From NCBI GenBank assembly GCA_032718475.1, contig JAUCBJ010004713.1, positions 1 to 51,067 of the forward strand: 51,067 nt of DNA, given 5' to 3'. Positions within the stretch are counted from its first letter, which is position 1. Each line of letters begins with the position of its first letter. The DNA comes from Nemertoderma westbladi. Its lineage: Eukaryota > Animalia > Xenacoelomorpha. The translations under genes were made by a program, and so were the position numbers. Positions 3,766 to 31,049 of this stretch are shown here, piece by piece. The notes beneath the pieces were generated by a model. The model was not told the origin of the DNA. It searched no databases and was given only the letters and a program-made list of their open reading frames with translations.

Positions 3766-4020
3766 AACGCGAAATAACGTACTAAATGATTCCACTTACC
3801 TCCCAGAACCAACTGAACGCGAAATAACGTACTAAATGATTCCACTTACCTCCCAGAACCAACTGAACGCGAAATAACGTACTAAATGATTCCACTTACC
3901 TCCCAGAACCAACTGAACGCGAAATAACGTACTAAATGATTCCACTTACCCCCCAGAACCAACTGAACGCGAAATAACGTACTAAATGATTCCACTTACC
4001 TCCCAGAACCAACTGAACGC
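3766..4020 (-). repeat. 50-bp tandem repeat x5 built from the exon G 3' end + splice donor
   Basis: Minus-strand unit GCGTTCAGTTGGTTCTGGGAG|GTAAGTGGAATCATTTAGTACGTTATTTC (21 exonic + 29 intronic nt); copies near-identical. Confidence 0.97.
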
Positions 4021-4188
4021 TGGCCTGTCTGCTGTGTTTTTGGTTACTGACGAAGCACTGCCAGGTCCCAGTGTGGCCGCGATCCATTTTGTCGATGTGT
4101 AGTGTGTAGTCGTCATCCACGGTTACCCCTAGCAACGTGTTCACCGGATGACTGTCCTTCATCCAAAACACGGAAACAATAGGATGAC
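4000..4188 (-). CDS. Dscam: Dscam-like exon G: remainder of Ig4
   Basis: Flanked by ttattttAG and GTAAGT; 189 nt, phase 1 to 1. (G)HPIVSVFWMKDSHPV...LHIDKMDRGHTGTWQCFVSNQKHSRQASVQLVLG matches the Dscam Ig4 end G.YQCFV.N...S.QAS..L.LG. Confidence 0.92.
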
Positions 4189-4263
4189 CTAAAATAAGAA
4201 AGTAAATATACTTTCAGGGTTGAGCGCGTTGTACCTCGAGACAAATAGATACCAGATCCCTTG

Positions 4264-5997
4264 AACTCACCAACTATACGACACTTCAGTTCCACTGACC
4301 GACCGACTAAACTTACCGACTATACGACACTTTAGTTCCACTGACTGACCGACTAAACTTACCGACTATTCGGCACTTTAGTGCCACTGACTGACCGACT
4401 AAACTTACCGACTATACGACACTTTAGTTCCACTGACCGACCGACTAAACTTACCGACTATACGACACTTTAGTTCCACTGACTGACCGACTAAACTTAC
4501 CGACTATACGACACTTTAGTTCCACTGACTGACCGACTAAACTTACCGACTATACGACACTTTAGTGCCACTGACCGACCGACTAAACTTACCGACTATT
4601 CGACACTTTAGTTCCACTGACTGACCGACTAAACTTACCGACTATTCGGCACTTTAGTGCCACTGACTGACCGACTAAACTTACCGACTATACGACACTT
4701 TAGTTCCACTGACCGACCGACTAAACTTACCGACTATACGACACTTTAGTTCCACTGACTGACCGACTAAACTTACCGACTATACGACACTTTAGTTCCA
4801 CTGACTGACCGACTAAACTTACCGACTATACGACACTTTAGTGCCACTGACCGACCGACTAAACTTACCGACTATTCGACACTTTAGTGCCACTGACCGA
4901 CCGACTAAACTTACCGACTATTCGGCACTTTAGAGCCACTGATTGACCGACTAAACTTACCGACTATACGACACTTGAGTTCCACTGACCGACCAACTAA
5001 ACTTACCGACTATACGACACTTTAGTTCCACTGACTGACCGACTAAACTTACCGAATATACGACACTTTAGTTCCACTGACCGACCAACTAAACTTACCG
5101 ACTATACGACACTTTAGTTCCACTGACTGACCGACTAAACTTACCGACTATACGACACTTTAGTTCCACTGACTGACCGACTAAACTTACCGACTATACG
5201 ACACTTTAGTTCCACTGACTGACCGACTAAACTTACCGACTATACGACACTTTAGTGCCACTGACCGACCAACTAAACTTACCGACTATACGACACTTTA
5301 GTTCCACTGACTGACCGACTAAACTTACCGACTATACGACACTTTAGTTACACTGACTGACCGACTAAACTTACCGACTATACGACACTTTAGTGCCACT
5401 GACCGACCGACTAAACTTACCGACTATTCGACACTTTAGTGCCACTGACCGACCGACTAAACTTACCGACTATTCGGCACTTTAGAGCCACTGATTGACC
5501 GACTAAACTCACCGACTATACGACACTTGAGTTCCACTGACCGACCAACTAAACTTACCGACTATACGACACTTTAGTTCCACTGACTGACCGACTAAAC
5601 TTACCGACTATACGACAATTTAGTGCCACTGACCGACCAACTAAACTCACCAACTATACGACACTTGAGTTCCACTGACCGACCGACTAAACTTACCGAC
5701 TATTCGGCACTTTAGTTCCACTGACTGACCGACTAAACTTACCGACTATACGACACTTTAGTGCCACTGACCGACCAACTAAACTTACCGACTATTCGAC
5801 ACTTTAGTGCCACTGACCGACCAACTAAACTTACCGACTATTCGGCACTTTAGTTCCACTGACCGACCAACTAAACTTACCGACTATTCGGCACTTTAGT
5901 GCCACTGACTTACCGACTAAACTTACCGACTATACGACACTTTAGTGCCATTGACTGACCGACTAAACTTACCGACTATACGACACTTGAGTTCCAC
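4264..5997 (-). repeat. 46-bp tandem repeat x~37 built from the exon F 3' end + splice donor
   Basis: Minus-strand unit GTGGAACTAAAGTGTCGTATAGTCG|GTAAGTTTAGTCGGTCAGTCA (25 + 21 nt), with point variants. Confidence 0.97.
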
Positions 5998-6181
5998 GGG
6001 TTCTCCGGCATCGAATGATCTATGACTGCTCCCTGGTATCTCGATTTCTAGAGGCCCTTCCACCTTCAGCTCAGTTGTCGCCTCTGCGAATCCCATTGAG
6101 TTTCGGACTTCGCAATGATACACACCAGCGTCGGTCTCTGTCGTCGTGTTTATCTTCAATATCCCGCTAGTCATATTGTGT
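5973..6181 (-). CDS. Dscam: Dscam-like exon F: C-half of Ig3 + start of Ig4
   Basis: Flanked by ttctcaccAG and GTAAGT; 209 nt, phase 2 to 1. HNMTSGILKINTTTETDAGVYHCEVRNSMGFAEATTELKVEGPLEIEIPGSSHRSFDAGEPVELKCRIV has D.G.Y.C...N..G. Confidence 0.92.
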
Positions 6182-6363
6182 CTGGTGAGAAAATATTATG
6201 AATGAATGATTCCTATGATTGATTGTTTCAACTTAGATTAAGGATAAACATTTACTCAATGACAATGATTGATTATCTCAGAGTGACAATCTCTACCGAG
6301 GTATTGTCTAATTATTGGGCGTCATTTATTGTTACCATTTTTCATTCTGTTTGAACTTTTGGT

Positions 6364-6709
6364 TTCGGTTCCATCAAATCGGTTTCAGTACACCATCCTT
6401 GGTAAAGTGATAGTTTATTGTTTTGGTTAGAAAAGCCCATCTCTGTAACCTGCTTCTTTCACTCAATTGGTAAAGTGGTCGTTTATTGTTTTGGTTAGAA
6501 AATCCCGCCTCTGTAACCTGCTCCTTTCCCTCAATTGGTAAAGTGATCGTTTATTGTTTTGGTTAGAAAATCCCGCCTCTGTAACCTGCTCCTCCCCCTC
6601 AATTGGTATATATCATGTACATGTACACCAGTACAGTACATCAGAAAATTAACGGGTTTTGAAACTTCAAAAAATTCCTAAGTGGTTGTACTGAAACTAA
6701 TTTTACCCG
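6364..6709. mobile_element. MITE-like element with three internal 68-bp repeats
   Basis: Imperfect inverted ends GTTTCAGTACA (6382) and TGTACTGAAAC (6687). 68-bp period at 6399/6467/6535/6603. Shares GTTTATTGTTTTGGTTAGA with the CCCATGTGAAG family. Confidence 0.6.
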
Positions 6710-7091
6710 AACTTTTATGAGATATGAGATAAGCAGTAGAGCAGCAGTTGAAATTATCGAGGGAGCGCAACGAGGGATGGTAAAATGTTATGTAATACTG
6801 ACACTACAGGCACAGTTAGTCGCACAGCGGACACATAACCTCTTCCCCCACTGCTCCATTGCAGACTTCATCGCTGTTTAACGACACAATAATAGCATTT
6901 AATAAACTTAAACGTTGTATTTAATATAATCCATTAATTTCGAGTATTTGTGACAAATAGAGCCAACCCTAAGTAGTTATATACTAACGCTAGAACAGTT
7001 GATTGGGTAAATTGATGTCAGTAAATCATTCAAATAAAATATAGATTGCATTTTTTAATACAATTTAATTGTAGTTTTCTTTATTCAATTT

Positions 7092-7368
7092 GGCCCATGT
7101 GAAGAATACCAGACTTTCTGCCGTTATATTTCACTTTGCAGTTACCCCCATGTGAAGAATACCAGGTTTTCACCAAAAACACAGGTTACACAAGGGCTGA
7201 ATCTAACCAAAACAATAAACGAATTAGTATATGTACAGGTTATAAGACAGAAATAAGCGCTATAAAACACTTAATAAAGATAAATTAAAAAAATAAAAAA
7301 TCTTCATATATAAAATTCCAATAAAAAGTCGACCGAAAAGTTAAATCCTGGTATTATTCACATGGGCG
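7092..7368 (+). mobile_element. MITE of the GCCCATGTGAAGAATACCAG TIR family
   Basis: ~20-bp TIRs GCCCATGTGAAGAATACCAG ... CTGGTATTATTCACATGGGC; homologous copies elsewhere in the window. Confidence 0.85.
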
Positions 7369-7453
7369 TTAGTATTTAGGGTTTGGATAAGCCACCGGCA
7401 AGCAAATAAGAAAGGTAAGTTAGATAGATCGATAATATAGTCAAGTAACTCAC

Positions 7454-7607
7454 CGAACTGTGAATGTAATATTTTCTCCATCCTTCGTCCAATGGTGGGT
7501 TGGTTTAGGGGAGCCGGAAGCGACACAAGGGATCTCAGCTCCCTCACCCTCCTTGACTTCGACCACAGACCTCGTGTACAATATCTCGGGTTTATTGTTG
7601 ATTGTCT
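7454..7607 (-). CDS. Dscam: Dscam-like exon E: N-terminal half of Ig3
   Basis: Flanked by ccttgccAG and GTGAGT; 154 nt, phase 1 to 2. (E)TINNKPEILYTRSVVEVKEGEGAEIPCVASGSPKPTHHWTKDGENITFTV(R) has the canonical C.ASG.P.P...W.KDG. Confidence 0.92.
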
Positions 7608-9256: not shown

Positions 9257-9412
9257 ATGTTGGCCTAGATTTTAGATGTTGGCTTAGATTTTAGATGTTG
9301 GCTTAGATTTTAGATGTTGGCTTAGATTTTAGATGTTGGCTTAGAATTTAGATGTTGGCTTAGATTTTAGATTCTGGCTTAGATTTTAGATGTTGGCTTT
9401 GATTTTAGATGC
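9257..9412. repeat. 19-bp minisatellite x~8
   Basis: Unit ATGTTGGCTTAGATTTTAG, immediately after a poly-G tract. Confidence 0.9.
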
Positions 9413-10399: not shown

Positions 10400-10950
10400 A
10401 GGAGCCAATAAATGGCAATCAGCGCTAGATTCGCAAACAATAGACTGGCGAGACTGTTATATATTGCCAAGACAAATACAAGTGATGCCAGATTGAGGAA
10501 TTTTCAAGATTGAGGAATTTTCATTTCAAATTATTACACCGAAGAATACCTACAAAGGTTGACTTACTGCGATACGGTATAGCGTCTGATGATAAATGCA
10601 TGATGCTCTGTGTGATGATAATGAGACACTGATTCACAACTTTTGGCAATGTAGTAAAACACAATGCTTTTTAAATACCTTACTTCAATGGTGGCTCCAA
10701 ACCACAAAATTAGGCACATATTTTTCTAAAAAGGTCTGTGTGCTGGGAATATCAGGGGCGGGAAATAAACTCACGGATTTAGTCTTGTTAATGAGCAGAT
10801 ATTACATCTTCTGCGTTTCTAAAATACTCCCGTATTAAGCTTTATGTTGAGAAATTAAAAAGGGTGTTTCAATTGGAGGAAGGAATATCACTAAAAAGTG
10901 ACAATTATACAGCATTAGGTCAAAATGGGATTCGCTTTATGATTTACTAA
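10400..10950 (+). mobile_element. Decayed L1/Tx1-clade LINE ORF2 C-terminus (zf-RVT region)
   Basis: Frameshifted peptide LRNFHFKLLHRRIPT...GI....KC..C...ETLIHNFWQC with a terminal KW; contains a 17-bp tandem duplication (GATTGAGGAATTTTCA). Confidence 0.75.
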
Positions 10951-11348: not shown

Positions 11349-14040
11349 GACACTCACCTTGTACAGCTAGGTTGGCTCCCTATACTCACCTTGTACAGCT
11401 AGGTTGGCTCCCTACACTCACCTTGTACGGCTAGGTTGGCTCCCTACACTCACCTTGTACAGCTAGGTTGGCTCCCTAGACTCACCTTGTACAGCTAGGT
11501 TGGCTCCCTACACTCACCTTGTACAGCTAGGTAGGCTCCCTACACTCACCTTGTACAGCTAGGTTGGTTCCCTACACTCACCTTGTACAGCTAGGTTGGC
11601 TCCCTACACTCACCTTGTACAGCTAGGTTGGCTCCCTACACTCACCTTGTACAGCTAGGTTGGCTCCCTACACTCACCTTGTACAGTTAGGTTGGCTCCC
11701 TACACTCACCTTGTACAGGTAGGTTGGCTCCCTACACTCACCTTGTACATCTAGGTTGGCTCCCTACACTCACCTTGTACAGCTAGGTAGGCTCCCTACA
11801 CTCACCTTGTACAGCTAGGTTGGTTCCCTACACTCACCTTGTACAGCTAGGTTGGCTCCCTACACTCACCTTGTACAGGTAGGTTGGCTCCCTACACTCA
11901 CCTTGTACAGCTAGGTTGGTTCCCTACACTCACCTTGTACAGCTAGGTTGGCTCCCTACACTCACCTTGTACAGGTAGGTTGGCTCCCTACACTCACCTT
12001 GTACATCTAGGTTGGCTCCCTACACTCACCTTGTACAGCTAGGTTGGCTCCCTACACTCACCTTGTACAGCTAGGTTGGCTCCCTAGACTCACCTTGTAC
12101 AGCTAGGTTGGTTCCCTAGACTCACCTTGTACAGCTACGTTGGCTCCCTACACTCACCTTGTACGGCTAGGTTGGCTCCCTACACTCACCTTGTACAGCT
12201 AGGTAGGCTCCCTACACTCACCTTGTACAGCTAGGTTGGTTCCCTACACTCACCTTGTACAGCTAGGTTGGCTCCCTACACTCACCTTGTACAGGTAGGT
12301 TGGCTCCCTACACTCACCTTGTACATCTAGGTTGGCTCCCTACACTCACCTTGTACAGCTAGGTTGGCTCCCTACACTCACCTTGTACAGCTAGGTTGGC
12401 TCCCTAGACTCACCTTGTACAGCTAGGTTGGTTCCCTAGACTCACCTTGTACAGCTACGTTGGCTCCCTACACTCACCTTGTACAGCTAGGTAGGCTCCC
12501 TACACTCACCTTGTACAGCTAGGTTGGTTCCCTACACTCACCTTGTACAGCTAGGTTGGCTCCCTACACTCACCTTGTACAGGTAGGTTGGCTCCCTACA
12601 CTCACCTTGTACATCTAGGTTGGCTCCCTACACTCACCTTGTACAGCTAGGTTGGCTCCCTACACTCACCTTGTACAGCTAGGTTGGCTCCCTAGACTCA
12701 CCTTGTACAGCTAGGTTGGTTCCCTAGACTCACCTTGTACAGCTACGTTGGCTCCCTACACTCACCTTGTACGGCTAGGTTGGCTCCCTACACTCACCTT
12801 GTACAGCTAGGTTGGCTCCCTACACTCACCTTGTACAGCTAGGTTGGTTCCCTACACTCACCTTGTACAGCTAGGTTGGCTCCCTACACTCACCTTGTAC
12901 GGCTAGGTTGGCTCCCTACACTCACCTTGTACAGCTAGGTTGGCTCCCTACACTCACCTTGTACAGCTAGGTTCGTTCCCTACACTCACCTTGTACAGCT
13001 AGGTTGGCTCCCTACACTCACCTTGTACAGCTAGGTTGGCTCCCTACACTCACCTTGTACAGCTAGGTTGGCTCCCTACACTCAACTTGTACAGCTAGGT
13101 TGGCTCCCTAGACTCACCTTGTACAGTTAGGTTGGCTCCCTACACTCACCTTGTACAGGTAGGTTGGCTCCCTACACTCACCTTGTACACTAGGTTGGCT
13201 CCCTACACTCACCTTGTACAGCTAGGTTGGCTCCCTACACTCACCTTGTACAGGTAGGTTGGCTCCCTACACTCACCTTGTACATCTAGGTTGGCTCCCT
13301 ACACTCACCTTGTACAGCTAGGTTGGCTCCCTACACTCACCTTGTACAGCTAGGTTGGCTCCCTAGACTCACCTTGTACAGCTAGGTTGGTTCCCTAGAC
13401 TCACCTTGTACAGCTACGTTGGCTCCCTACACTCACCTTGTACGGCTAGGTTGGCTCCCTACACTCACCTTGTACAGCTAGGTTGGCTCCCTACACTCAC
13501 CTTGTACAGCTAGGTTGGTTCCCTACACTCACCTTGTACAGCTAGGTTGGCTCCCTACACTCACCTTGTACGGCTAGGTTGGCTCCCTACACTCACCTTG
13601 TACAGCTAGGTTGGCTCCCTACACTCACCTTGTACAGCTAGGTTCGTTCCCTACACTCACCTTGTACAGCTAGGTTGGCTCCCTACACTCACCTTGTACA
13701 GCTAGGTTGGCTCCCTACACTCACCTTGTACAGCTAGGTTGGCTCCCTACACTCAACTTGTACAGCTAGGTTGGCTCCCTAGACTCACCTTGTACAGTTA
13801 GGTTGGCTCCCTACACACACCTTGTACAGCTAGGTTGGCTCCCTACACTCACCTTGTACAGCTAGGCTTGGCTCCCTACACTCACCTTGTACAGCTAGGT
13901 TGGCTCCCGTGCACTCACCTTGTTCAGCTAGGACCTTGGCTCCCGACACTCACCTTGTACAGCTAGGTTGGCTCCCTAGACTCACCTTGTACAGCTAGGT
14001 TGGCTCCCTCCTCCCTTGTACACTGGACCTTGGTTACCGA
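11349..14040 (-). repeat. 32-bp tandem repeat x~84 built from the exon D 3' end + splice donor
   Basis: Minus-strand unit GGGAGCCAACCTAGCTGTACAAG|GTGAGTGTA (23 + 9 nt); irregular transition zone at ~13860-14100. Confidence 0.97.
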
Positions 14041-14514
14041 CACTCACCTTGTACAGCTAGGTTGGCTCCCGTGCTTTGCTTACCTGGCACCTTGGTTACG
14101 GACACTCACCTTGTACAGCTAGGTTGGCTCCCGTGCTTTGTTTATGGACCTTGGTTACGGACACTCACCTTGTACAGCTAGGTTGGCTCCCGTGCTTTGT
14201 TTATGGACCTTGGTTACGGACACTCACCTTGTACAGCTAGGTTGGCTCCCGTGCTTTGTTTATGGACCTTGGTTACGGACACTCACCTTGTACAGCTAGG
14301 TTGGCTCCCGTGCTTTGTTTATGGACCTTGGTTACGGACACTCACCTTGTACAGCTAGGTTGGCTCCCGTGCTTTGTTTATGGACCTTGGTTACGGACAC
14401 TCACCTTGTACAGCTAGGTTGGCTCCCGTGCTTTGTTTATGGACCTTGGTTACGGACACTCACCTTGTACAGCTAGGTTGGCTCCCGTGCTTTGTTTATG
14501 GACCTTGGTTACGG
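14041..14514 (-). repeat. 59-bp tandem repeat x~8 built from the exon D 3' end + splice donor
   Basis: Unit = last 51 nt of exon D + GTGAGTGT; period 59 seen directly (14101, 14160, 14219...). Confidence 0.97.
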
Positions 14515-14613
14515 CATTTTCCGCCGTACAAACGTAACGACCGACAGAGTCTACCGAATTCACGCCATTAATTATGAGAACGCCGGTGTTGGTAATAACC
14601 ATTCTTTGGTCGT
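14464..14613 (-). CDS. Dscam: Dscam-like exon D: C-terminal half of Ig2
   Basis: Flanked by ttttacAG and GTGAGT; 150 nt, phase 1 to 1. (D)DQRMVITNTGVLIINGVNSVDSVGRYVCTAENAVTKVHKQSTGANLAVQ has G.L.I..V...D...Y.C. Confidence 0.9.
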
Positions 14614-15127: not shown

Positions 15128-18100
15128 AACCCCTGACCGGGGGGTTCAAGGCTAATATAATGAATCCGTAACTGGGGGGTTCAATACTAATAGAATGAAT
15201 CCCTGACCGGGGGTTCAAGGCTAATAGAATGAATCCCTGACCGGGGATTCAATACTAATAGAATGAATCTCTGACCGGGGGTTCAAGGCTAATAGAATGA
15301 ATCCCTGACCGGGGGGTTCAATACTAATAAAATGAATCTCCGACCGGGGGTTCAAGGCTAATAGAATGAATCCCTGACCGGGGGTTCAAGGCTAATAGAA
15401 TGAATCCCTGACCGGGGGGTTCAAGGCTAATAGAATGAATCCCTGACCGGGGGGTTCAATACTAATAGAATGAATCCCTGACCGGGGGTTCAATACTAAT
15501 AGAATAAATCCCTGACCGGGGGTTCAAGGCTAATAGAATGAATCCCTGACCGGGGGGTTCAATACTAATAGAATGAATCTCTGACCGGGGGTTCAATACT
15601 AATAGAATGAATCCCTGGCCGGGGATTCAATACTAATAGAATGAATCTCTGACCGGGGGTTCAATACTAATAGAATGAATCCCTGGCCGGGGATTCAAGG
15701 CTAATAGAATGAATCTCTGACCGGGAGTTCAATACTAATAGAATGAATCCCTGACCGGGGGTTCAAGGCTAATAGAATGAATCCCTAACCGGGGGTTCAA
15801 TACTAATAGAATGAATCCCTGACCGGGGGTTCAAGGCTAATAGAATGAATCTCTGACCGGGGGTTCAAGGCTAATAGAATGAATCTCTGACCGGGGGTTC
15901 AATACTAATAGAATGAATCTCCGACCGGGGGTTTAAGGCTAATAGAATGAATCCCTGACCGGGGGGTTCAAGGCTAATAGAATGAATCCCTGACCGGGGG
16001 TTCAAGGCTAATAGAATGAATCCCTGACCGGGGGGTTCAAGGCTAATAGAATGAATCCCTGACCGGGGGGTTCAAGGCTAATAGAATGAATCCCTGACCG
16101 GGGGTTCAAGGCTAATAGAATGAATCCCTGACCGGGGGGTTCAATACTAATAGAATGAATCCCTGACCGGGGGGTTCAATACTAATAGAATGAATCCCTG
16201 GCCGGGGATTCAATACTAATAGAATGAATCCCTGACCGGGGGTTCAAGGCTAATAGAATGAATCCCTGACCGGTTCAAGGCTAATAGAATGAATCTCTGA
16301 CCGGGGGGTTCAATACTAATAGAATGAATCCCTAACCGGGGGTTCAAGGCAAATAGAATGAATCCCTAACCGGGGGTTCAAGGCTAATAGAATGAATCCC
16401 TGACCGGTTCAAGGCTAATAGAATGAATCTCTGACCGGGGGTTCAAGGCTAATAGAATGAATCCGTAACCGGGGGGTTCAATACTAATATAATGAATCCC
16501 TAACCGGGGGTTCAAGGCTAATAGAATGAATCCCTAACCGGGGGTTCAATACTAATAGAATGAATCCCTGACCGGGGGTTCAAGGCTAATAGAATGAATC
16601 CCTAACCGGGGGTTCAAGGCTAATAGAATGAATCCGTAACCGGGGGGTTCAATACTAATAGAATGAATCCCTAACCGGGGGTTCAAGGCTAATAGAATGA
16701 ATCCCTGACCGGGGGTTCAAGGCTAATAGAATGAATCCCTGACCGGCGGGTTCAAGGCTAATAGAATGAATCCGTAACCGGGGGGTTCAATACTAATATA
16801 ATGAATCCCTAACCGGGGGTTCAAGGCTAATAGAATGAATCCCTAACCGGGGGTTCAAGGCTAATATAATGAATCCCTAACCGGGGGTTCAAGGCTAATA
16901 GAATGAATCCCTGACCGGGGGTTCAAGGCTAATAGAATGAATCTCTGACCGGGGGTTCAAGGCTAATAGAATTAATCCCTGACTGGGGGTTCAATACTAA
17001 TAGAATGAATCCCTGGCCGGGGATTCAATACTAATAGAATGAATCTCTGACCGGGGGTTCAAGGCTAATAGAATGAATCCCTGACCGGTTCAAGGCTAAT
17101 AGAATGAATCCCTGGCCGGGGATTCAATACTAATAGAATGAATCCCTGACCGGGGATTCAAGGCTAATAGAATGAACCCCTAACCGGGGGTTCAACGCTA
17201 ATAGAATGAATCCCTGACCGGTTCAAGGCTAATAGAATGAATCCCTGGCCGGGGATTCAATACTAATAGAATGAATCCCTGACCGGGGATTCAAGGCTAA
17301 TAGAATGAATCCCTAACCGGGGGTTCAAGGCTAATATAATGAATCCCTGACCGGGTGTTCAAGGCTAATAGAATGAATCTCTGACCGGGGGGTTCAATAC
17401 TAATAGAATGAATCTCTGACCGGGGGTTCAAGGCTAATATAATGAATCCCTGACCGGGGGGTTCAATACTAATAGAATGAATCCCTAACCGGGGGTTCAA
17501 GGCTAATAGAATGAATCCCTGGCCGGGGGGTTCAATACTAATAGAATAAATCCCTGACCGGGGGGTTCAATACTAATAGAATGAATCCCTAACCGGGGGT
17601 TCAAGGCTAATAGAATGAATCCCTGGCCGGGGGGTTCAATACTAATAGAATGAATCTCTGACCGGGGGGTTCAATACTAATAGAATGAATCCCTGGCCGG
17701 GGATTCAATACTAATAGAATGAATCCCTGACCGGGGGTTCAAGGCTAATAGAATGAATCCCTGACCGGGGGTTCAAGGCTAATAGAATGAATCCCTGACC
17801 GGGGGATTCAATACTAATAGAATGAATCTCTGACCGGGGGTTCAATACTAATAGAATGAATCCCTGGCCGGGGATTCAATACTAATAGAATGAATCTCTG
17901 ACCGGGGGTTCAAGGCTAATAGAATGAATCCCTGACCGGGGGTTCAAGGCTAATAGAATGAATCTCTGACCGGGGGGTTCAATACTAATAGAATGAATCC
18001 CTGACCGGGGGTTCAATACTAATAGAATGAATCCGTGACCGGGGGGTTCAAGGCTAATAGAATGAATTCCTGACCGGGGGTTCAAGGCTAATAGAATGAA

Positions 18101-21100
18101 TCCCTGGCCGGGGGTTCAAGGCTAATAGAATGAATCTCTGACCGGGGGGTTCAATACTAATAGAATGAATCCCTGGCCGGGGATTCAATACTAATAGAAT
18201 GAATCCCTGGCCGGGGATTCAATACTAATAGAATGAATCCCTGACCGGGGGGTTCAATACTAATAGAATGAATCCCTGACCGGGGGGTTCAATACTAATA
18301 GAATGAATCCCTGACCGGGGGGTTCAATACTAATAGAATGAATCCCTGACCGGGGGGTTCAATACTAATAGAATGAATCCCTGACCGGGGGTTCAATACT
18401 AATAGAATGAATCCCTGACCGGGGGGTTCAATACTAATAGAATGAATCCCTGACCGGGGGGTTCAATACTAATAGAATGAATCCCTGACCGGGGGGTTTA
18501 ATACTAATATAATGAATCCCTGACCGGGGGTTCAATACTAATAGAATGAATCCCTGACCGGGGGGTTCAATACTAATAGAATGAATCCCTGACCGGGGGG
18601 TTCAATACTAATAGAATGAATCCCTGACCGGGGGGTTTAATACTAATATAATGAATCCCTGACCCGGGGTTCAAGGCTAATAGAATGAATCCCTGACCGG
18701 GGGTTTAAGGCTAATAGAATGAATCCCTGACCGGGGGGTTCAATACTAATAGAATGAATCCCTGACCGGGGGGTTCAAGGCTAATAGAATGAATCCCTGA
18801 CCGGGGGTTTAAGGCTAATAGAATGAATCCCTGACCGGGGGGTTCAAGGCTAATAGAATGAATCCCTGACCGGGGGTTTAAGGCTAATAGAATGAATCCC
18901 TGACCGGGGGGTTCAATACTAATAGAATGAATCCCTGACCGGGGGGTTCAAGGCTAATAGAATGAATCCCTGACCGGGGGTTTAAGGCTAATAGAATGAA
19001 TCCCTGACCGGGGGGTTCAATACTAATAGAATGAATCCCTGACCGGGGGTTTAAGGCTAATAGAATGAATCCCTGACTGGGGGTTCAATACTAATAGAAT
19101 GAATCCCTGACTGAGGGCTCAATACTAATAGAATGAATCCCTGACAGGGGGTTCAATACTAATAGAATGAATCCCTGACAGGGGGTTCAAGGCTAATAGC
19201 ATGAATCCCTGACCGTGTGTTCAAGGCTAATAGAATGAATCCCTGACCGGCGGGTTCAATACTAATAGAATGAATCTCTGACCGGGGGTTCAAGGCTAAT
19301 AGAATGAATCCCTGACCGGGGGGTTCAATACTAATAGAATGAATCCCTGACCGGGGGTTCAAGGCTAATAGAATGAATCCCTGACCGGGGGTTCAATACT
19401 AATAGAATGAATCCCTGACCGGGGGGTTCAATACTAATAGAATGAATCCCTGACCGGGGGTTCAAGGCTAATAGAATGAATCCCTGACCGTGTGTTCAAG
19501 GCTAATAGAATGAATCCCTGACCGGCGGGTTCAATACTAATAGAATGAATCTCTGACCGGGGGTTCAAGGCTAATAGAATGAATCCCTGACCGGCGGGTT
19601 CAATACTAATAGAATGAATCTCTGACCGGGGGTTCAAGGCTAATAGAATGAATCCCTGACCGGGGGGTTCAATACTAATAGAATGAATCCCTGACCGGGG
19701 GTTCAAGGCTAATAGAATGAATCCCTGACCGGGGGTTCAATACTAATAGAATGAATCCCTGGCCGGGGGGTTCAATACTAATAGAATGAATCCCTGACCT
19801 GGGGGTTCAATACTAATAGAATGAATCCCTGACCGGGGGTCCAAGGCTAATAGAATGAATCCATGACCGGCGGGTTCAATACTAATAGAATGAATCCCTG
19901 ACCGGGGGGTTCAATACTAATAGAATGAATCCCTGACCTGGGGGTTCAATACTAATAGAATGAATCCCTGACCGGGGGTTCAAGGCTAATAGAATGAATC
20001 CATGACCGGTGGTTCAATACTAATAGAATGAATCTCTGACCGGGGGTTCAAGGCTAATAGAATGAATCCCTGACCGGGGGGTTCAATACTAATAGAATGA
20101 ATCCCTGACCGGGGGTTCAAGGCTAATAGAATGAATCCCTGACCGGGGGTTCAATACTAATAGAATGAATCCCTGACCGGCGGGTTCAATACTAATAGAA
20201 TGAATCTCTGACCGGGGGTTCAAGGCTAATAGAATGAATCCCTGACCGGGGGGTTCAATACTAATAGAATGAATCCCTGACCGGGGGTTCAAGGCTAATA
20301 GAATGAATCCCTGACCGGGGGTTCAATACTAATAGAATGAATCCCTGGCCGGGGGGTTCAATACTAATAGAATGAATCCCTGACCTGGGGGTTCAATACT
20401 AATAGAATGAATCCCTGACCGGGGGTTCAATACTAATAGAATGAATCCCTGGCCGGGGGGTTCAATACTAATAGAATGAATCCCTGACCGGGGATTCAAT
20501 ACTAATAGAATGAATCCCTGACCGGGGGGTTCAAGGCTAATAGAATGAATCCCTGACCGGCGGGTTCAATACTAATAGAATGAATCCCTGACCGGGGGGT
20601 TCAATACTAATAGAATGAATCCCTGACCTGGGGGTTCAATACTAATAGAATGAATCCCTGACCGGGGGTTCAAGGCTAATAGAATGAATCCATGACCGGT
20701 GGTTCAATACTAATAGAATGAATCCCTGACCGGGGGTTGAAGGCTAATAGAATGAATCCCTGACCGGGGGTTCAAGGCTAATAGAATGAATCCCTGACCG
20801 GGGGTTCAAGGCTAATAGAATGAATCCCTGACCGGGGGTTCAAGGCTAATAGAATGAATCCCTGACCGGGGGTTCAATACTAATAGAATGAATCCCTGAC
20901 CGGGGGGTTCAATACTAATAGAATGAATCCCTGACCGGGGGGTTCAAGGCTAATAGAATGAATCCCTGACCGGGGGTTCAAGGCTAATAGAATGAATCCC
21001 TGACCGGGGGTTCAAGGCTAATAGAATGAATCCCTGACCGGGGGTTTAAGGCTAATAGAATGAATCCCTGACCGGGGGGTTCAATACTAATAGAATGAAT

Positions 21101-24100
21101 CCCTGACCGGGGGGTTCAATACTAATAGAATGAATCCCTGACCCGGGGTTCAAGGCTAATAGAATGACTCCCTGACCGGGGGTTCAATACTAATATAATG
21201 AATCCCTGACCCGGGGTTCAATACTAATAGAATGAATCCCTGACCGGGGGTTCAATACTAATAGAATGAATCCCTGACCGGGGGTTCAAGGCTAATAGAA
21301 TGAATCCCTGACCGGGGGGTTCAATACTAATAGAATGAATCCCTGACCCGGGGTTCAAGGCTAATATAATGAATCCCTGACCGGGGGGTTCAATACTAAT
21401 AGAATGAATCCCTGACCGGGGGTTCAATACTAATAGCATGAATCCCTGACCGTGTGTTCAAGGCTAATAGAATGAATCCCTGACCGGGGGGTTCAATACT
21501 AATAGAATGAATCCCTGACCGGAGGGTTCAATACTAATAGAATGAATCCCTGACCGGGGGTTCAATACTAATAGCATGAATCCCTGACCGTGTGTTCAAG
21601 GCTAATAGAATGAATCCCTGACCGGCGGGTTCAATACTAATAGAATGAATCTCTGACCGGGGGTTCAAGGCTAATAGAATGAATCCCTGACCGGGGGGTT
21701 CAATACTAATAGAATGAATCCCTGACCGGGGGTTCAAGGCTAATAGAATGAATCCCTGACCGGGGGTTCAATACTAATAGAATGAATCCCTGACCGGGGG
21801 GTTCAATACTAATAGAATGAATCCCTGACCGGGGGTTCAAGGCTAATAGAATGAATCCCTGACCGTGTGTTCAAGGCTAATAGAATGAATCCCTGACCGG
21901 CGGGTTCAATACTAATAGAATGAATCTCTGACCGGGGGTTCAAGGCTAATAGAATGAATCCCTGACCGTGTGTTCAAGGCTAATAGAATGAATCCCTGAC
22001 CGGGGGTTCAATACTAATAGAATGAATCCCTGACCGGGGGGTTCAATACTAATAGAATGAATCCCTGACCGGGGGTTCAATACTAATAGAATGAATCCCT
22101 GACCGGGGGGTTCAATACTAATAGAATGAATCTCTGACCGGGGGTTCAAGGCTAATAGAATGAATCCCTGACCGGGGGGTTCAATACTAATAGAATGAAT
22201 CCCTGACCGGGGGTTCAAGGCTAATAGAATGAATCCCTGACCGGGGGTTCAATACTAATAGAATGAATCTCTGACCGGGGGTTCAAGGCTAATAGAATGA
22301 ATCCCTGACCGGGGGGTTCAATACTAATAGAATGAATCCCTGACCGGGGGTTCAAGGCTAATAGAATGAATCCCTGACCGGGGGGTTCAATACTAATAGA
22401 ATGAATCCCTGACCGGGGGTTCAAGGCTAATAGAATGAATCCCTGACCGGGGGTTCAATACTAATAGAATGAATCCCTGACCGGGGGGTTCAAGGCTAAT
22501 AGAATGAATCCCTGACCGGCGGGTTCAATACTAATAGAATGAAACTCTGACCGGGGGTTCAAGGCTAATAGAATGAATCCCTGACCGGGGGGTTCAATAC
22601 TAATAGAATGAATCCCTGACCGGGGGTTCAAGGCTAATAGAATGAATCCCTGACCGGGGGTTCAATACTAATAGAATGAATCCCTGACCGGGGGGTTCAA
22701 TACTAATAGAATGAATCCCTGACCCGGGGTTCAATACTAATAGAATGAATCCCTGGCCGGGGGGTTCAATACTAATAGAATGAATCCCTGACCGGGGGTT
22801 CAATACTAATAGCATGAATCCCTGACCGTGTGTTCAAGGCTAATAGAATGAATCCCTGACCGGGGGTTCAATACTAATAGAATGAATCCCTGACCGGGGG
22901 GTTCAATACTAATAGAATGAATCCCTGACCGGGGGTTCAATACTAATAGAATGAATCCCTGACCGGGGGGTTCAATACTAATAGAATGAATCCCTGACCG
23001 GGGGGTTCAATACTAATAGAATGAATCCCTGACCGGGGGTTCAATACTAATAGAATGAATCCCTGACCGGGGGGTTCAATACTAATAGAATGAATCCCTG
23101 ACCGGGGGGTTCAATACTAATAGAATGAATCCCTGACCGGGGGGTTCAATACTAATATAATGAATCCCTGACAGGGGGTTCAAGGCTAATAGAATGAATC
23201 CCTGACCGGGGGTTTAAGGCTAATAGAATGAATCCCTGACCGGGGGGTTCAATACTAATAGAATGAATCCCTGACCGGGGGGTTCAAGGCTAATAGAATG
23301 AATCCCTGACCGGGGGTTTAAGGCTAATAGAATGAATCCCTGACCGGGGGGTTCAAGGCTAATAGAATGAATCCCTGACCGGGGGTTTAAGGCTAATAGA
23401 ATGAATCCCTGACCGGGGGGTTCAATACTAATAGAATGAATCCCTGACCGGGGGGTTCAAGGCTAATAGAATGAATCCCTGACCGGGGGTTTAAGGCTAA
23501 TAGAATGAATCCCTGACCGGGGGGTTCAATACTAATAGAATGAATCCCTGACCGGGGGTTTAAGGCTAATAGAATGAATCCCTGACTGGGGGTTCAATAC
23601 TAATAGAATGAATCCCTGACTGAGGGCTCAATACTAATAGAATGAATCCCTGACAGGGGGTTCAATACTAATAGAATGAATCCCTGACAGGGGGTTCAAG
23701 GCTAATAGAATGAATCCCTAACCGGGGGTTTAAGCTTTAAGGCTAATAGAATGAATCCCTGACCGGGGGGTTCAATACTAATAGAATGAATCCCTGACCG
23801 GGGGGTTCAAGGCTAATAGAATGAATCCCTGACCGGGGGTTTAAGGCTAATAGAATGAATCCCTGACCGGGGGGTTCAATACTAATAGAATGAATCCCTG
23901 ACCGGGGGGTTCAATACTAATAGAATGAATCCCTGACAGGGGGTTCAAGGCTAATAGAATGAATCCCTGACCGGGGGTTTAAGGCTAATAGAATGAATCC
24001 CTGACCGGGGGGTTCAATACTAATAGAATGAATCCCTGACCGGGGGGTTCAAGGCTAATAGAATGAATCCCTGACCGGGGGTTTAAGGCTAATAGAATGA

Positions 24101-27100
24101 ATCCCTGACCGGGGGGTTCAATACTAATAGAATGAATCCCTGACCGGGGGGTTCAATACTAATAGAATGAATCCCTGACTGGGGGTTCAATACTAATAGA
24201 ATGAATCCCTGACTGGGGGTTCAATACTAATAGAATGAATCCCTGACAGGGGGTTCAATACTAATAGAATGAATCCCTGACAGGGGGGTTCAATACTAAT
24301 AGAATGAATCCCTGACCGGGGGTTCAATACTAATAGAATGAATCCCTGACCGGGGGGTTCAAGGCTAATAGAATGAATCCCTGACAGGGGGTTCAATACT
24401 AATAGAATGAATCCCTGACAGGGGGGTTCAATACTAATAGAATGAATCCCTGACCGGGGGTTCAATACTAATAGAATGAATCCCTGACCGGGGGGTTCAA
24501 GGCTAATAGAATGAATCCCTGACAGGGGGTCCAATACTAATAGAATGAATCCCTGACTGGGGGTTCAATACTAATAGAATGAATCCCTGACAGGGGGTTC
24601 AATACTAATAGAATGAATCCCTGACCGGGGGTTCAATACTAATAGAATGAATCCCTGACCGGGGGTTCAATACTAATAGCATGAATCCCTGACCGTGTGT
24701 TCAAGGCTAATAGAATGAATCCCTGACCGGGGGGTTCAATACTAATAGAATGAATCCCTGACCGGAGGGTTCAATACTAATAGAATGAATCCCTGACCGG
24801 GGGTTCAATACTAATAGCATGAATCCCTGACCGTGTGTTCAAGGCTAATAGAATGAATCCCTGACCGGCGGGTTCAAGGGTAATAGAATGAATCCCTGAC
24901 CGGGGGTTCAAGGCTAATAGAATGAATCCCTGACCGGCGGGTTCAATACTAATAGAATGAATCTCTGACCGGGGGTTCAAGGCTAATAGAATGAATCCCT
25001 GACCGGCGGGTTCAATACTAATAGAATGAATCCCTGACCGGGGGTTCAAGGCTAATAGAATGAATCCCTGACCGGCGGGTTCAATACTAATAGAATGAAT
25101 CTCTGACCGGGGGTTCAAGGCTAATAGAATGAATCCCTGACCGGGGGGTTCAATACTAATAGAATGAATCCCTGACCGGGGGTTCAAGGCTAATAGAATG
25201 AATCCCTGACCGGGGGTTCAATACTAATAGAATGAATCCCTGACCGGGGGGTTCAATACTAATAGAATGAATCCCTGACCGGGGGTTCAAGGCTAATATA
25301 ATGAATCCCTGACCGTGTGTTCAAGGCTAATAGAATGAATCCCTGACCGGCGGGTTCAATACTAATATAATGAATCTCTGACCGGGGGTTCAAGGCTAAT
25401 AGAATGAATCCCTGACCGGCGGGTTCAATACTAATAGAATGAATCTCTGACCGGGGGTTCAAGGCTAATAGAATGAATCCCTGACCGGGGGGTTCAATAC
25501 TAATAGAATGAATCCCTGACCGGGGGTTCAAGGCTAATAGAATGAATCCCTGACCGGGGGGGTTCAATACTAATAGAATGAATCCCTGACCGGGGGGTTC
25601 AATACTAATAGAATGAATCCCTGACCCGGGGGTTCAATACTAATAGAATGAATCCCTGGCCGGGGGGTTCAATACTAATAGAATGAATCCCTGACCGGGG
25701 GTTCAATACTAATAGCATGAATCCCTGACCGTGTGTTCAAGGCTAATAGAATGAATCCCTGACCGGGGGTTCAATACTAATAGAATGAATCCCTGACCGG
25801 GGGGTTCAATACTAATAGAATGAATCCCTGACCGGGGGGTTCAATACTAATAGAATGAATCCCTGACCGGGGGGTTCAATACTAATAGAATGAATCCCTG
25901 ACCGGGGGGTTCAATACTAATAGAATGAATCCCTGACCGGGGGTTCAATACTAATAGAATGAATCCCTGACCGGGGGGTTCAATACTAATAGAATGAATC
26001 CCTGACCGGGGGGTTCAATACTAATAGAATGAATCCCTGACCGGGGGGTTCAATACTAATATAATGAATCCCTGACAGGGGGTTCAAGGCTAATAGAATG
26101 AATCCCTGACCGGGGGTTTAAGGCTAATAGAATGAATCCCTGACCGGGGGGTTCAATACTAATAGAATGAATCCCTGACCGGGGGGTTCAATACTAATAG
26201 AATGAATCCCTGACCGGGGGGTTCAATACTAATATAATGAATCCTTGACAGGGGGTTCAAGGCTAATAGAATGAATCCCTGACCGGGGGTTTAAGGCTAA
26301 TAGAATGAATCCCTGACCGGGGGGTTCAATACTAATAGAATGAATCCCTGACCGGGGGGTTCAAGGCTAATAGAATGAATCCCTGACCGGGGGTTTAAGG
26401 CTAATAGAATGAATCCCTGACCGGGGGGTTCAAGGCTAATAGAATGAATCCCTGACCGGGGGTTTAAGGCTAATAGAATGAATCCCTGACCGGGGGGTTC
26501 AATACTAATAGAATGAATCCCTGACCGGGGGGTTCAAGGCTAATAGAATGAATCCCTGACCGGGGGTTTAAGGCTAATAGAATGAATCCCTGACCGGGGG
26601 GTTCAATACTAATAGAATGAATCCCTGACCGGGGGTTTAAGGCTAATAGAATGAATCCCTGACTGGGGGTTCAATACTAATAGAATGAATCCCTGACTGA
26701 GGGCTCAATACTAATAGAATGAATCCCTGACAGGGGGTTCAATACTAATAGAATGAATCCCTGACAGGGGGTTCAAGGCTAATAGAATGAATCCCTAACC
26801 GGGGGTTTAAGGCTAATAGAATGAATCCCTGACCGGGGGGTTCAATACTAATAGAATGAATCCCTGACCGTGTGTTCAAGGCTAATATAATGAATCCCTG
26901 ACCGGGGGTTCAATACTAATAGAATGAATCCCTGACCCGGGGTTCTAGGCTAATAGAATGACTCCCTGACCCGGGGTTCAAGGCTAATAGAATGAATCCC
27001 TGACCGGGGGTTCAATACTAATAGAATGAATCCCTGACCCGGGGTTCAAGGCTAATATAATGAATCCCTGACCGGTGGTTCAATACTAATAGAATGAATC

Positions 27101-29022
27101 CCTGACCGGGGGGTTCAAGGCTAATAGAATGAATCCCTGACCGGGGGTTTAAGGCTAATAGAATGAATCCCTGACCGGGGGGTTCAATACTAATAGAATG
27201 AATCCCTGACCGGGGGGTTCAATACTAATAGAATGAATCCCTGACAGGGGGTTCAAGGCTAATAGAATGAATCCCTGACCGGGGGTTTAAGGCTAATAGA
27301 ATGAATCCCTGACCGGGGGTTCAATACTAATAGAATGAATCCCTGACCGGGGGGTTCAAGGCTAATAGAATGAATCCCTGACCGGGGGTTTAAGGCTAAT
27401 AGAATGAATCCCTGACCGGGGGGTTCAATACTAATAGAATGAATCCCTGACCGGGGGGTTCAATACTAATAGAATGAATCCCTGACAGGGGGTTCAAGGC
27501 TAATAGAATGAATCCCTGACCGGGGGTTTAAGGCTAATAGAATGAATCCCTGACCGGGGGGTTCAATACTAATAGAATGAATCCCTGACAGGGGGTTCAA
27601 TACTAATAGAATGAATCCCTGACCGTGTGTTCAAGGCTAATATAATGAATCCCTGACCGGGGGTTCAATACTAATAGAATGAATCCCTGACCCGGGGTTC
27701 TAGGCTAATAGAATGACTCCCTGACCCGGGGTTCAAGGCTAATAGAATGAATCCCTGACCGGGGGTTCAATACTAATAGAATGAATCCCTGACCCGGGGT
27801 TCAAGGCTAATAGAATGAATCCCTGACCGGTGGTTCAATACTAATAGAATGAATCCCTGACCGGGGGGTTCAAGGCTAATAGAATGAATCCCTGACCGGG
27901 GGTTTAAGGCTAATAGAATGAATCCCTGACCGGGGGGTTCAATACTAATAGAATGAATCCCTGACCGGGGGGTTCAATACTAATAGAATGAATCCCTGAC
28001 AGGGGGTTCAAGGCTAATAGAATGAATCCCTGACCGGGGGTTTAAGGCTAATAGAATGAATCCCTGACCGGGGGGTTCAATACTAATAGAATGAATCCCT
28101 GACCGGGGGGTTCAAGGCTAATAGAATGAATCCCTGACCGGGGGTTTAAGGCTAATAGAATGAATCCCTGACCGGGGGGTTCAATACTAATAGAATGAAT
28201 CCCTGACCGGGGGGTTCAATACTAATAGAATGAATCCCTGACTGGGGGTTCAATACTAATAGAATGAATCCCTGACTGGGGGTTCAATACTAATAGAATG
28301 AATCCCTGACCGGGGGTTCAATACTAATAGAATGAATCCCTGACCGGGGGGTTCAATACTAATAGAATGAATCCCTGACCGGGGGTTCAATACTAATAGA
28401 ATGAATCCCTGACCGGGGGGTTCAAGGCTAATAGAATGAATCCCTGACCGGGGGTTCAATACTAATAGAATGAATCCCTGACCGGGGGGTTCAATACTAA
28501 TAGAATGAATCCCTGACCGGGGGTTCAATACTAATAGAATGAATCCCTGACCGGGGGTTCAAGGCTAATAGAATGAATCCCTGACAGGGGGTCCAATACT
28601 AATAGAATGAATCCCTGACCGGGGGTTCAATACTAATAGAATGAATCCCTGACCGGGGGTTCAATACTAATAGAATGAATCCCTGACCGGGGGTTCAAGG
28701 CTAATAGAATGAATCCCTGACCGGGGGGTTCAAGGCTAATAGAATGAATCCCTGACCGGGGGTTCAATACTAATAGAATGAATCCCTGACCGGGGGTTCA
28801 ATACTAATAGAATGAATCCCTGACCGGGGGGTTCAAGGCTAATAGAATGAATCCCTGACCGGGGGTTCAATACTAATAGAATGAATCCCTGACCGGGGGT
28901 TCAATACTAATAGAATGAATCCCTGACCGGGGGGTTCAATACTAATAGAATGAATCCCTGACCGGGGGTTCAATACTAATAGAATGAATCCCTGACCGGG
29001 GGGTTCAATACTAATAGAATGA
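15128..29022. repeat. ~13.9-kb satellite, 34/35-bp unit, roughly 400 copies, in intron C-D
   Basis: Unit CTAATAGAATGAATCCCTGACCG(5-6)TTCAA(GG/TA), uninterrupted across the interval. Confidence 0.98.
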
Positions 29023-29235
29023 GACCCATTTAAAAAATAACACATTTTGAACAAACTCGGTTGCATCGTGTTATTGGAAAACAACATCACGCTGCAGTCT
29101 CGACACACAAGTCTTGCTGCTGCTGGGGTGTGACTGCTGTCGTAGAACCCATCAGCAGCAGTGCATGCTATATGGGAGACGGCAGGTGAGAGGAAACGAG
29201 GATTTTCAATTTTTTAAAATTTTAAATAATTTCCA

Positions 29236-29377
29236 GCCCATGTGAAGTCAACCAGACTATCTGCTGTTATATCTCACTTAACAGTTTACCTCCATGTGAA
29301 GCTAATACCAGGTTTTCACTAAAATCCCAGGATAAAGAAGGGCTGAATCTAAACATTAGTATCTTCACATGTAGGCG
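29236..29377 (+). mobile_element. Internally deleted, diverged copy of the same MITE
   Basis: GCCCATGTGAAG start, TCTTCACATG end, shared GGGCTGAATCTAA. Confidence 0.7.
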
Positions 29378-30417
29378 CAAATTCCGCGGGTCCGCGGTTC
29401 GGTTCACATTGCACTAAATAAAAAGTCAAGTCAACGGTTTTGAATATGCTGATTAATTGAGAATTATTTACATTGTAAAATGTCTAGGAGTAGAAGTTGT
29501 GTTACAGGGATGCCACGGTTATTTGGTGTTGGAATTGGGGTTGCCGGTTTGCTCAGGACTCAAGCTCTATTATTCTTTGCATTGTTAAACTCAATATCCT
29601 CCATCATCAACCCATCTCAGAAATGTAATAGTAACAGTCAACTATATTCTCTCATCGCAGAACCCTTTAATTAACCCAGGACTGTAAATGTCATCCAAAC
29701 AACACACGAACAAACCACGGTTGTAAAGGTATACCAATATCTCCCAACGCCTGCCTGCCCTCGGGAATACGCCAGCGCCCCCTTACGTTCATCCTATAAA
29801 CTCAGAAAATATCCCAACATACCCCGGATTGTGGCTCGCTTAAATTGGTTTTCTTTGTTCTTTGGATTAGCTATTCCCTATTGGTTGGGCGGGGCGCTAT
29901 ACAGGCTTCCCCTACATCCCCTTCTGATGAATGGATTCTTATTGCTTCGTCCAGCATGCTTATGTTACTGTGGTTACACAAGGCGGGGGCGCGTGTTACC
30001 ATGGTGGATACCAGGAAGAAATCATCCGTTTCAGAGAAGGACGGCAGCCTGCATAAGTCGCTTTATTATGCTCCAGCTCAATTTGGGATGAATAAGGGGA
30101 GAATTATTAATGCAGAACACAATGTCTTCTACGAATATAACGCCGCCATGCGAATTATATGGGTATTTTGTATTGGATCGCATACTACACCTCTAGGTGG
30201 CGAAATTCATTGTAGTATATTATACTGATTATAATATAGTACTGTAATTAATCTACATACTTTGCTGAATGGAGGGACATGACTTTTTGGAGGTTGCAAG
30301 TTAAAAAATTTTATGATAATGAAATATGACATAGTGACAATGAGACTATGTATGGCAAATTGATAATCTAATAACTTATTCTGCAAATAGCAAATTAATT
30401 ATATTAGTTGGCCTTGG

Positions 30418-30955
30418 CGCCCTGTTGAAGAATACCAACCAGGATTTCACTTTTCGGTCGACTTTTTATTGGAATTTTATATATGAAAATTTTTTATTTT
30501 TTAAATTTATCTTTATTAAGTGTTTTATAGCGCTTATTTCGGCCCATGTGAAGAATACCAGACTTTCTGCCGTTATATTTCACTTTGCAGTTAACCCCAT
30601 GTGAAGAATACCAGACTTTCTGCCGTTATATTTCACTTTGCAGTTAACCCCATGTGAAGAATACCAGACTTTCTGCCGTTATATTTCACTTTGCAGTTAC
30701 CCCCCTGTGAAGAATACCAGGTTTTGACAAAAAACACAGGTTACAGAAGGGTTGAATCTAACCAAAACAATAAACGAATTACTATATGTGTACAGGTTAT
30801 AAGAGAGAAATAAGCGTTATAAAACACTTAATAAAGATAAATAAAAAAAAAAGTAAATCTTCATATATAAAATTCCAATAAAAGGTCGACCGAAAAGTGA
30901 AATCCTGGTATTCTTCACATGGGCGCTTATTTCTGTCTTTTAACCTGTACATATA
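30418..30955. mobile_element. Self-nested MITE pair: + copy 30541-30925 inside a truncated - copy
   Basis: Inner copy is bounded by CTTATTTC at 30533-30540 and 30926-30933 and has extra ~54-bp internal repeats. Confidence 0.85.
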
Positions 30956-30972
30956 CCAATTCCATATACTAA

Positions 30973-31049
30973 CTCAGAACTTTTCCACCCTTAGTCCAGC
31001 TCACTTACCTTGATGCCTCAGAACTTTTCCGCCCTTAGTCCAGCTCACT
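30973..31049 (-). repeat. 44-bp-period partial duplication across the exon C donor
   Basis: 33 nt at 30973-31005 (intron) match exonic 31017-31049 with one mismatch. Confidence 0.92.

Follow-up and report, generated by a model that had tools for sequence, protein, structure and literature searches.

The end of an exon, together with its 5' splice site, recurs in tandem in several introns of a minus-strand gene, and the question raised by this locus is whether the additional splice signals perform a function or are simply ignored. We analyzed the whole stretch of DNA that contains the gene (51,067 nucleotides, hereafter the window). As argued below, three exon ends and their donors have probably been copied in tandem into the next intron as mirage-type minisatellites, by small local duplications that likely persist neutrally. 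The repeat type itself is ordinary. Its value here lies in a dense natural example: a single gene with three independent arrays, the largest of 91 near-identical donors.

Predicted gene structure and similarity to Dscam

Conceptual splicing under a first-donor model joins seven minus-strand exons in frame into 404 amino acids with no stops. The exons and the parts of Ig domains that they are predicted to encode are as follows.

Exon A, 46571..46770, minus strand: N-terminal half of Ig1; no junction repeat; used in PDB search
Exon B, 39076..39226, minus strand: C-terminal half of Ig1; no junction repeat; used in PDB search
Exon C, 31009..31170, minus strand: N-terminal half of Ig2
Exon D, 14464..14613, minus strand: C-terminal half of Ig2
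Exon E, 7454..7607, minus strand: N-terminal half of Ig3; no junction repeat
Exon F, 5973..6181, minus strand: C-terminal half of Ig3 and start of Ig4; used in PDB search
Exon G, 4000..4188, minus strand: Ig4; used in PDB search

Dscam is the top PDB hit for three of the four exons searched (A, B and F of A, B, F and G). With exon A, fly Dscam accounts for the best 12 of 16 hits (best E=7.5e-05); with exon B, all 12 hits are weak matches to Dscam (best E=0.015); and with exon G, titin ranks first and Dscam second. Judged from sequence, the N-terminal Ig domains are closest to Dscam, and the gene is predicted to encode a Dscam-like Ig protein, as originally proposed for a gene of seven exons. 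Four Ig domains only were found within the window. A protein search with exon A yielded 19 hits of at most 49% identity; names were retrieved for four clusters among the 10 that were looked up, all of them arthropod. The closest named proteins are arthropod, with 34-49% identity over single exons. In a search for homologs of exon F among longer proteins, none of 28 candidates qualified. In intron B, inspection by eye suggested a cassette exon at a donor-like site (34156); it was rejected because the two candidate lengths, 34 and 40 nt, break the frame and exon B joins exon C without it.

Arthropod Dscam1 carries clusters of mutually exclusive exons. Those of fly Dscam1 fall at the N-terminal halves of Ig2 and Ig3, the regions of exons C and E here. 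The present gene resembles arthropod Dscam1 in its predicted Dscam-like product and in having exons (C and E) for these two half-domains. However, unlike arthropod Dscam1, the window has no whole-exon duplicates: a tblastn search with the seven exons found no second whole exon in the window outside the arrays. The array copies hold just 21-51 coding nucleotides and therefore cannot extend the protein. Dscam1-type exon clusters were thus rejected, as they had been when the arrays were first noticed.

Arrays of donors at three exons

Array coordinates and unit sizes were called with TRF. Donor arrays follow exons D, F and G.

Exon D donor array, 11350..14514, minus strand: 59-bp unit x9, then 32-bp unit x85; 91 donor positions, of which 88 are GTRAGT
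Exon F donor array, 4264..5997, minus strand: 46-bp unit x37.7; 38 donors, all GTRAGT
Exon G donor array, 3766..4020, minus strand: 50-bp unit x5.1; five donors, all GTRAGT; units 99% alike

At all three exons, the repeat unit crosses the exon-intron boundary, and head-to-tail units of minisatellite size (32-59 bp) repeat the splice signal. In D, the 59-bp unit consists of 51 exon and 8 intron nucleotides, and the 32-bp unit of 23 exon and 9 intron nucleotides. The F unit holds 25 exon nucleotides, the donor, and, within the unit, a secondary 13-bp duplication of this junction, and the G unit holds 21 exon and 29 intron nucleotides. These sizes agree with the 21-51 coding nucleotides originally estimated per copy. 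The donors of D and F have each been duplicated twice, with differing unit lengths. Microhomology of 5 bp flanks the G array, and only 1-6 bp is found at the others. Distinct unit variants number 21 in D and 20 in F. An 18-unit block of the D array has an exact repeat 21 units downstream, and a 5-unit block is repeated in F; neither was matched in any of 300 shuffles, although mis-assembly could explain the block in D.

Exon C had been counted as a fourth case. Its 44-bp duplication has a unit that spans the donor, but the second copy ends short of it, and a high-copy dispersed repeat begins where this copy stops.

Partial copy of the end of exon C, 30973..31008, minus strand: 36 nt, offset 44, single copy; begins at the real donor

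Because exon C has a single donor position (one GTRAGT), it was rejected as a donor array, and the exons with such arrays number three of seven, not four. The independent origin of the arrays is upheld, but for three donor arrays rather than four events. At positions homologous to the donors of exons C, D, F and G, 132 GTRAGT motifs occur, of which four are the real donors; the remaining 128 match the roughly 130 added motifs first reported. Local copies of acceptor junctions were found at none of the seven acceptors in the gene, also as reported.

Half of the span first assigned to the arrays (3766..31049) is taken up by another repeat.

34-bp satellite, 15131..29022, no strand assigned: in intron C; about 404 copies (TRF); consensus without GTRAGT; not junction-derived

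This satellite shows the background repeat activity of the region: tandem repeats cover 23,057 of the 51,067 bases, and 17 arrays lie away from junctions.

Read support

The arrays are extremely unlikely to be artefacts of assembly. Reads from three DNA runs (X1, X2 and X3, of which X2 and X3 represent one sample) were compared at the start of array F. A contig from X2, which derives from another study and sample, covers positions 5926-6362 and thereby bridges exon F into the array through one whole repeat unit; at many sites in single-copy sequence, it and the window differ. Depth is greater over the F array than over the exon in all three runs, with ratios of 47 (X1), 7 (X2) and 11 (X3), where contig depth does not represent copy number. 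The many distinct unit variants in D and F likewise argue against an artefact. What favors one is that the read comparison covers F only, leaving D and G, and that D holds the exact 18-unit repeat.

Consequences of the downstream donors

Splicing from any of the 131 downstream donors would fail to yield an in-frame product without stops: 42 keep the frame, and none of these 42 is free of stops. The idea that the arrays act as an isoform dial was rejected on this result. The same count weighs against a related reading, which we regard as most improbable, that the arrays are alternative 5' splice sites, or recursive AG/GT steps, by which the Dscam-like protein is varied or new introns are created. 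The donors of D, G and C do have the form AG/GT, the substrate of a tandem-duplication model of intron gain (PMC3087553), but the F donor lacks the AG, and whole-exon duplicates are absent from the window. Upstream of the AG in the copies, 6-9 of 15 nucleotides are pyrimidines, versus 9-13 at true acceptors, with the 32-bp D unit offset by one base. Amino-acid changes are frequent in the exon-derived parts of the copies: the translation departs from that of the exon in 17 of 37 copies in F and in 39 of 90 in D.

The original prediction also suggested that the arrays are functional U1-loading or decoy platforms. In such a role, they would keep premature polyadenylation within introns in check or adjust splicing. 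U1 telescripting is an established phenomenon, and the extra donors keep the GTRAGT consensus almost throughout. However, several observations make this role very unlikely, although none is decisive. Apart from its array, the F intron comprises only the 83 nt past the last array donor, with no AATAAA and no ATTAAA, which speaks against a U1 shield, and donor arrays are absent from introns A (7.3 kb, 11 AATAAA), B (7.9 kb, 9 AATAAA) and C (16.4 kb). The difference in variability between U1-pairing columns (4 of 18 variable) and other columns (21 of 60) is not significant, in a comparison of low power (p=0.40). Moreover, array copy number apparently varies among samples, and no such platform was found in a search of literature by titles and abstract openings, with most subscription papers outside it. 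As a separate observation, the point estimates for the U1-pairing columns (22% versus 35% variable) lean toward donor conservation.

Excess at donors and proposed origin

Arrays span three of the seven donors, versus 0.22 expected when the window's 17 other arrays serve as background (P ~0.001). For array-junction overlap, P is 0.009 over all 14 junctions and 4e-5 when C is counted among the donors; because the window was preselected, all of these values make the excess look stronger than it is. The asymmetry between donors and acceptors is not significant (3:0, p=0.19; 4:0, p=0.07). Breakpoints of the copies fall at intron positions +6 to +9 in three of four cases (C, D and F), with post hoc P of 0.004-0.008, or 0.03 without C; that of G falls at +29 to +34. 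A local excess at donors holds within the window. The donor-targeted duplication process first proposed keeps this local excess, but targeting itself is not established, given the nonsignificant 3:0 asymmetry and a lancelet globin gene, BflGb6, that carries such a repeat at an acceptor (PMC3087553). The same gene contradicts the idea that acceptor copies are always purged.

Neutral survival alone predicts no excess over the intronic background, and the observed three of seven counts against it. Exon edges might instead be favored starting points for duplications that end immediately beyond the conserved donor, leaving arrays that are still functionless. The causes may include, for example, the end of allelic homology in recombination repair, or U1-bound or paused transcription complexes, and each gene may have its own affected exon side, determined by, for example, the direction of replication. 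The donor excess, the clustered breakpoints, and the two duplications of differing unit length at each of the D and F donors favor such a process, yet we consider it unlikely: the cases number three to four in a selected window, G breaks elsewhere, and selection by itself pushes breakpoints beyond +6. In addition, exons have the higher GC content (0.49 versus 0.38), and that of the four largest arrays, two of which lie away from junctions, is 0.45-0.54, so composition may suffice. A similarly doubtful generalization is that tandem duplications in animal genomes rich in repeats originate preferentially at exon edges, with a breakpoint just past the splice-site footprint (+6 to +9 in this gene) and one polarity per gene (all-donor, as here, or all-acceptor). 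If this were true, mirages would record a junction-directed mutational process not yet described, and the question of how they arise would have an answer.

We favor small local duplication followed by neutral persistence. A founder duplication of 32-59 bp would cross the donor through slippage or microhomology-guided repair. The exon and first donor remain intact, and so every copy falls in the intron. Unequal exchange, suggested by the block structure, would then enlarge and homogenize the array, as in the window's other arrays. By analogy with human F7 and lancelet data, the most upstream donor would be chosen, and because splicing would use this donor, the arrays likely persist as neutral DNA. 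The extra splice signals are likely ignored and not a regulatory device. Leakage to a later donor would lead to a frameshift or stop, and the product would probably be degraded. The exon-edge excess would reflect mutational bias, perhaps from GC-richer exon DNA, and not function; this is the weakest step.

Comparison with known boundary-spanning minisatellites

The arrays had been regarded as an undescribed system, but similar repeats are reported in several papers. Lancelet repeats that span exon-intron boundaries were named "mirages" and occur in Adh3, the globins BflGb6 and BflGb9, troponin C and PGBD5 (PMC3087553, PMC3902484). They have units of 10-160 bp, haplotype length differences and concerted evolution, their definition includes undisturbed splicing at the authentic site, and their origin is stated to be unclear (PMC3087553, PMC3902484). 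Tandem-duplication intron gain has been proposed for them (PMC3087553), and human repeats at boundaries that give rise to new introns are also described (PMC2812944). In human, boundary-spanning VNTRs are known in at least five genes: F7 (intron 7), 6-16, CBS (intron 13), LMNB2 and PDGF (PMC1557585). The F7 unit has 37 bp (4 exon and 33 intron nucleotides) in 5-9 copies; only the first donor is used in F7, LMNB2 and PDGF, whereas two downstream sites are used as well in 6-16 and CBS (PMC1557585). On the mechanism of mirage birth, decoy function or genome-wide enrichment, nothing further was found in the literature searched, which excluded most subscription papers.

The lancelet work leaves open whether mirages arise at junctions above chance, and the source genome of the window could settle this. 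The arrays would also put first-donor selection to a strong test in a non-mammalian setting, and donor arrays of this type can mislead gene prediction.

By layout, the D, F and G arrays are of the mirage kind of boundary-spanning minisatellite. The repeated unit blocks of D and F also fit turnover by homogenization of blocks within the cluster, with the reservation of a possible mis-assembly in D. Like lancelet mirages, their units span the boundary, duplicate splice signals and lie within 10-160 bp; as in the human F7-type VNTRs, the real donor lies in the first unit and identical pseudo-donors follow. However, lancelet globin mirages have 3-6 copies, versus up to 91 here, and lancelet mirages occur at both exon ends, whereas the present arrays all lie at donors. 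F7 units are mostly intron; in D and F, by contrast, exon sequence makes up most of the unit, which stops 7-9 nt inside the original intron. Finally, the human VNTRs are described as one array per gene, and this gene has three.

Host gene and donor arrays

Joined, the seven minus-strand exons A to G encode 404 amino acids without a stop, and all seven have an AG acceptor and a GTRAGT donor.

Exons of the gene model
46770-46571, minus strand, exon A
39226-39076, minus strand, exon B
31170-31009, minus strand, exon C
14613-14464, minus strand, exon D
7607-7454, minus strand, exon E
6181-5973, minus strand, exon F
4188-4000, minus strand, exon G

Pfam detected Ig domains in the frames of exons E, F and G, and none in that of exon A. 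Because fly Dscam is the top solved-structure match for exons A (E=7.5e-05), B (E=0.015) and F, and second to titin for exon G, "Dscam-like" is a fair label as judged on the exon sequences in the window; the remaining architecture lies beyond it. A protein search with exon A returned nothing above 49% identity, and its named matches are arthropod proteins. No second whole exon was found in the window. Intron A (introns are named for the preceding exon) contains a broken non-LTR retrotransposon fragment (42588-43569; RVT_1, E=8.3e-10) with an 8-bp x7.8 repeat (43499-43560), and intron B a lone donor-like site (CAG/GTGAGT, 34156) without a frame-keeping exon upstream.

TRF delimits tandem arrays of exon end plus donor at exons G (array G, 3766-4020; 50 bp x5.1), F (array F, 4264-5997; 46 bp x37.7) and D (array D, 11350-14514; 59 bp x9, then 32 bp x85), with 5, 38 and 91 donor-homologous positions, respectively. 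Together with the single exon C donor, they hold 132 GTRAGT motifs, of which 128 are extra, in agreement with the roughly 130 added motifs of the original prediction. Its statement that acceptors are spared also holds (0/7 with a local copy); donors A, B and E likewise yielded no local copy. Its count of four exons out of seven stands for D, F and G, but not for C, which has one donor, so the strict figure is 3/7. The 36-nt second copy at exon C starts at the real donor, and ends short of a second donor, where a high-copy dispersed repeat begins.

Excess over background repeats

Tandem repeats occupy 23,057 of the 51,067 bases of the window, and 17 arrays with a period of at least 10 lie away from junctions. 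Non-junction repeats include the following; the arrays of 46, 22, 315 and 19 bp served as background.

Non-junction repeats in the window
15131-29022, 34-bp satellite, about 404 copies, 13.9 kb, most of intron C, not junction-derived
33262-33812, 46 bp x12 array
35317-36217, 22 bp x41 array
47354-48680, 315 bp x4.2 array
9257-9411, 19 bp x8.2 array
30417-30972, 7089-7368, 34617-34842, 29236-29355, 6479-6588, dispersed repeat, inverted-repeat organisation

The dispersed repeat is presumably MITE-like, and one of its copies starts where the exon C duplicate ends. In three DNA runs its contig depths add up to tens of thousands of times that of single-copy sequence.

With each array collapsed to one unit, 3/7 donors are spanned versus 0.22 expected (P ~0.001; 4e-5 if C is counted; 0.009 over all 14 junctions), and these P values overstate the excess, because the window was picked for its odd look. 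The local excess at donors holds, but the asymmetry between donors and acceptors falls short of significance (p=0.19, or 0.07 with C counted), so donor-targeted duplication, as proposed, is not established. Base composition could account for some of the excess, since exons have a higher GC content than the non-array window (0.49 versus 0.38), and GC content is 0.45-0.54 in the four largest arrays, of which two lie away from junctions.

Array anatomy and turnover

Three of the four units (C, D, F and G) end just past the donor: original intron contributes at most 6 nt to the exon C duplication, 7 nt to the array F unit, and 8-9 nt to both array D units. Array G has 29-34 intron nt per unit and 5-bp microhomology at its bounds. 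Three of four breakpoints at no more than +9 or +10 correspond to a post hoc P of 0.004-0.008 (uniform beyond +6; a founder length of 32 was deduced for array F), or 0.03, also post hoc, without C.

Nested in the array F unit is a 13-bp copy of its own exon-intron junction. In unit 2 (5908-5932) this duplicate retains a full GTAAGT, which shows that the 46-bp unit arose from a smaller duplication that had already occurred at this donor. Given also the two unit lengths of array D, the D and F donors were each duplicated twice. Among unit variants, an 18-unit block of array D recurs 21 units later, and a 5-unit block is repeated in array F (each reached in 0/300 shuffles). This recurrence fits unequal exchange; mis-assembly could also produce it.

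Array F in sequencing runs

Logan contigs of four runs were placed on 5900-11340. Contigs of DNA run X1 contain long stretches identical to the window, of which X1 may be the source. DNA runs X2 and X3, a single sample from another study, show many differences from the window at single-copy positions. One X2 contig, spanning 5926-6362, joins intron E, exon F and one full repeat unit; the start of array F is also present in this second study's sample. The ratio of depth at 5951 to exon F depth is 47, 7 and 11 in X1, X2 and X3 (the window has 38 units), which, because contig depth is not equal to copy number, only suggests length polymorphism between samples. At 5951, in the first F unit, contigs of all three runs have C and the window T, possibly a consensus error or placement effect. 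A further short repeat (8666-8716) has very high depth in 4/4 runs.

Possible functions

Splicing at downstream donors as an isoform dial was ruled out: 42/131 positions keep the frame, and 0/42 in-frame products are stop-free. Translations unlike that of the exon occur in 17/37 F and 39/90 D copies, and the exon-derived parts show no visible coding constraint. The donor taken to be used within each array is a putative assignment. Variable columns make up 4/18 U1-pairing and 21/60 other positions (p=0.40), a low-power comparison with a trend to conservation.

The proposal that the arrays load U1 as a shield against intronic polyadenylation is not supported by their placement. Intron F, with 83 nt beyond its last donor, has 0 AATAAA and 0 ATTAAA, and no donor array occurs in introns A (7,344 nt, 11 AATAAA), B (7,905 nt, 9 AATAAA) or C (16,395 nt, 4 AATAAA); the array-bearing introns D and G have 4 and 7 AATAAA.

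In our reading, the arrays are genuine minisatellites across donors, of a type already described, and probably neutral. Birth biased towards junctions, with one polarity per gene, could underlie the edge clustering and the unit ends just past the donor, yet we regard it as unlikely; no paper testing it was found in the part of the literature searched.

Comparison with published boundary-spanning repeats

The original prediction did not recognise a described system, but three papers describe the same kind as "mirages", minisatellites whose unit spans an exon-intron boundary, and as human boundary VNTRs (PMC3087553, PMC3902484, PMC1557585). In human F7, the first unit of the intron 7 VNTR spans the donor. 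Of 5-9 identical sites, splicing uses solely the one furthest upstream, for which the authors prefer oriented scanning; only the first site is used in LMNB2 and PDGF repeats, and two further sites are used too in 6-16 and CBS (PMC1557585). Lancelet mirages lie at donor and acceptor ends in globin genes, have units of 10-160 bp and haplotypes of differing length, and apparently do not disturb splicing; the authors call the origin unclear (PMC3087553). Troponin C and PGBD5 are further cases (PMC3902484), and arrays D, F and G resemble this group.
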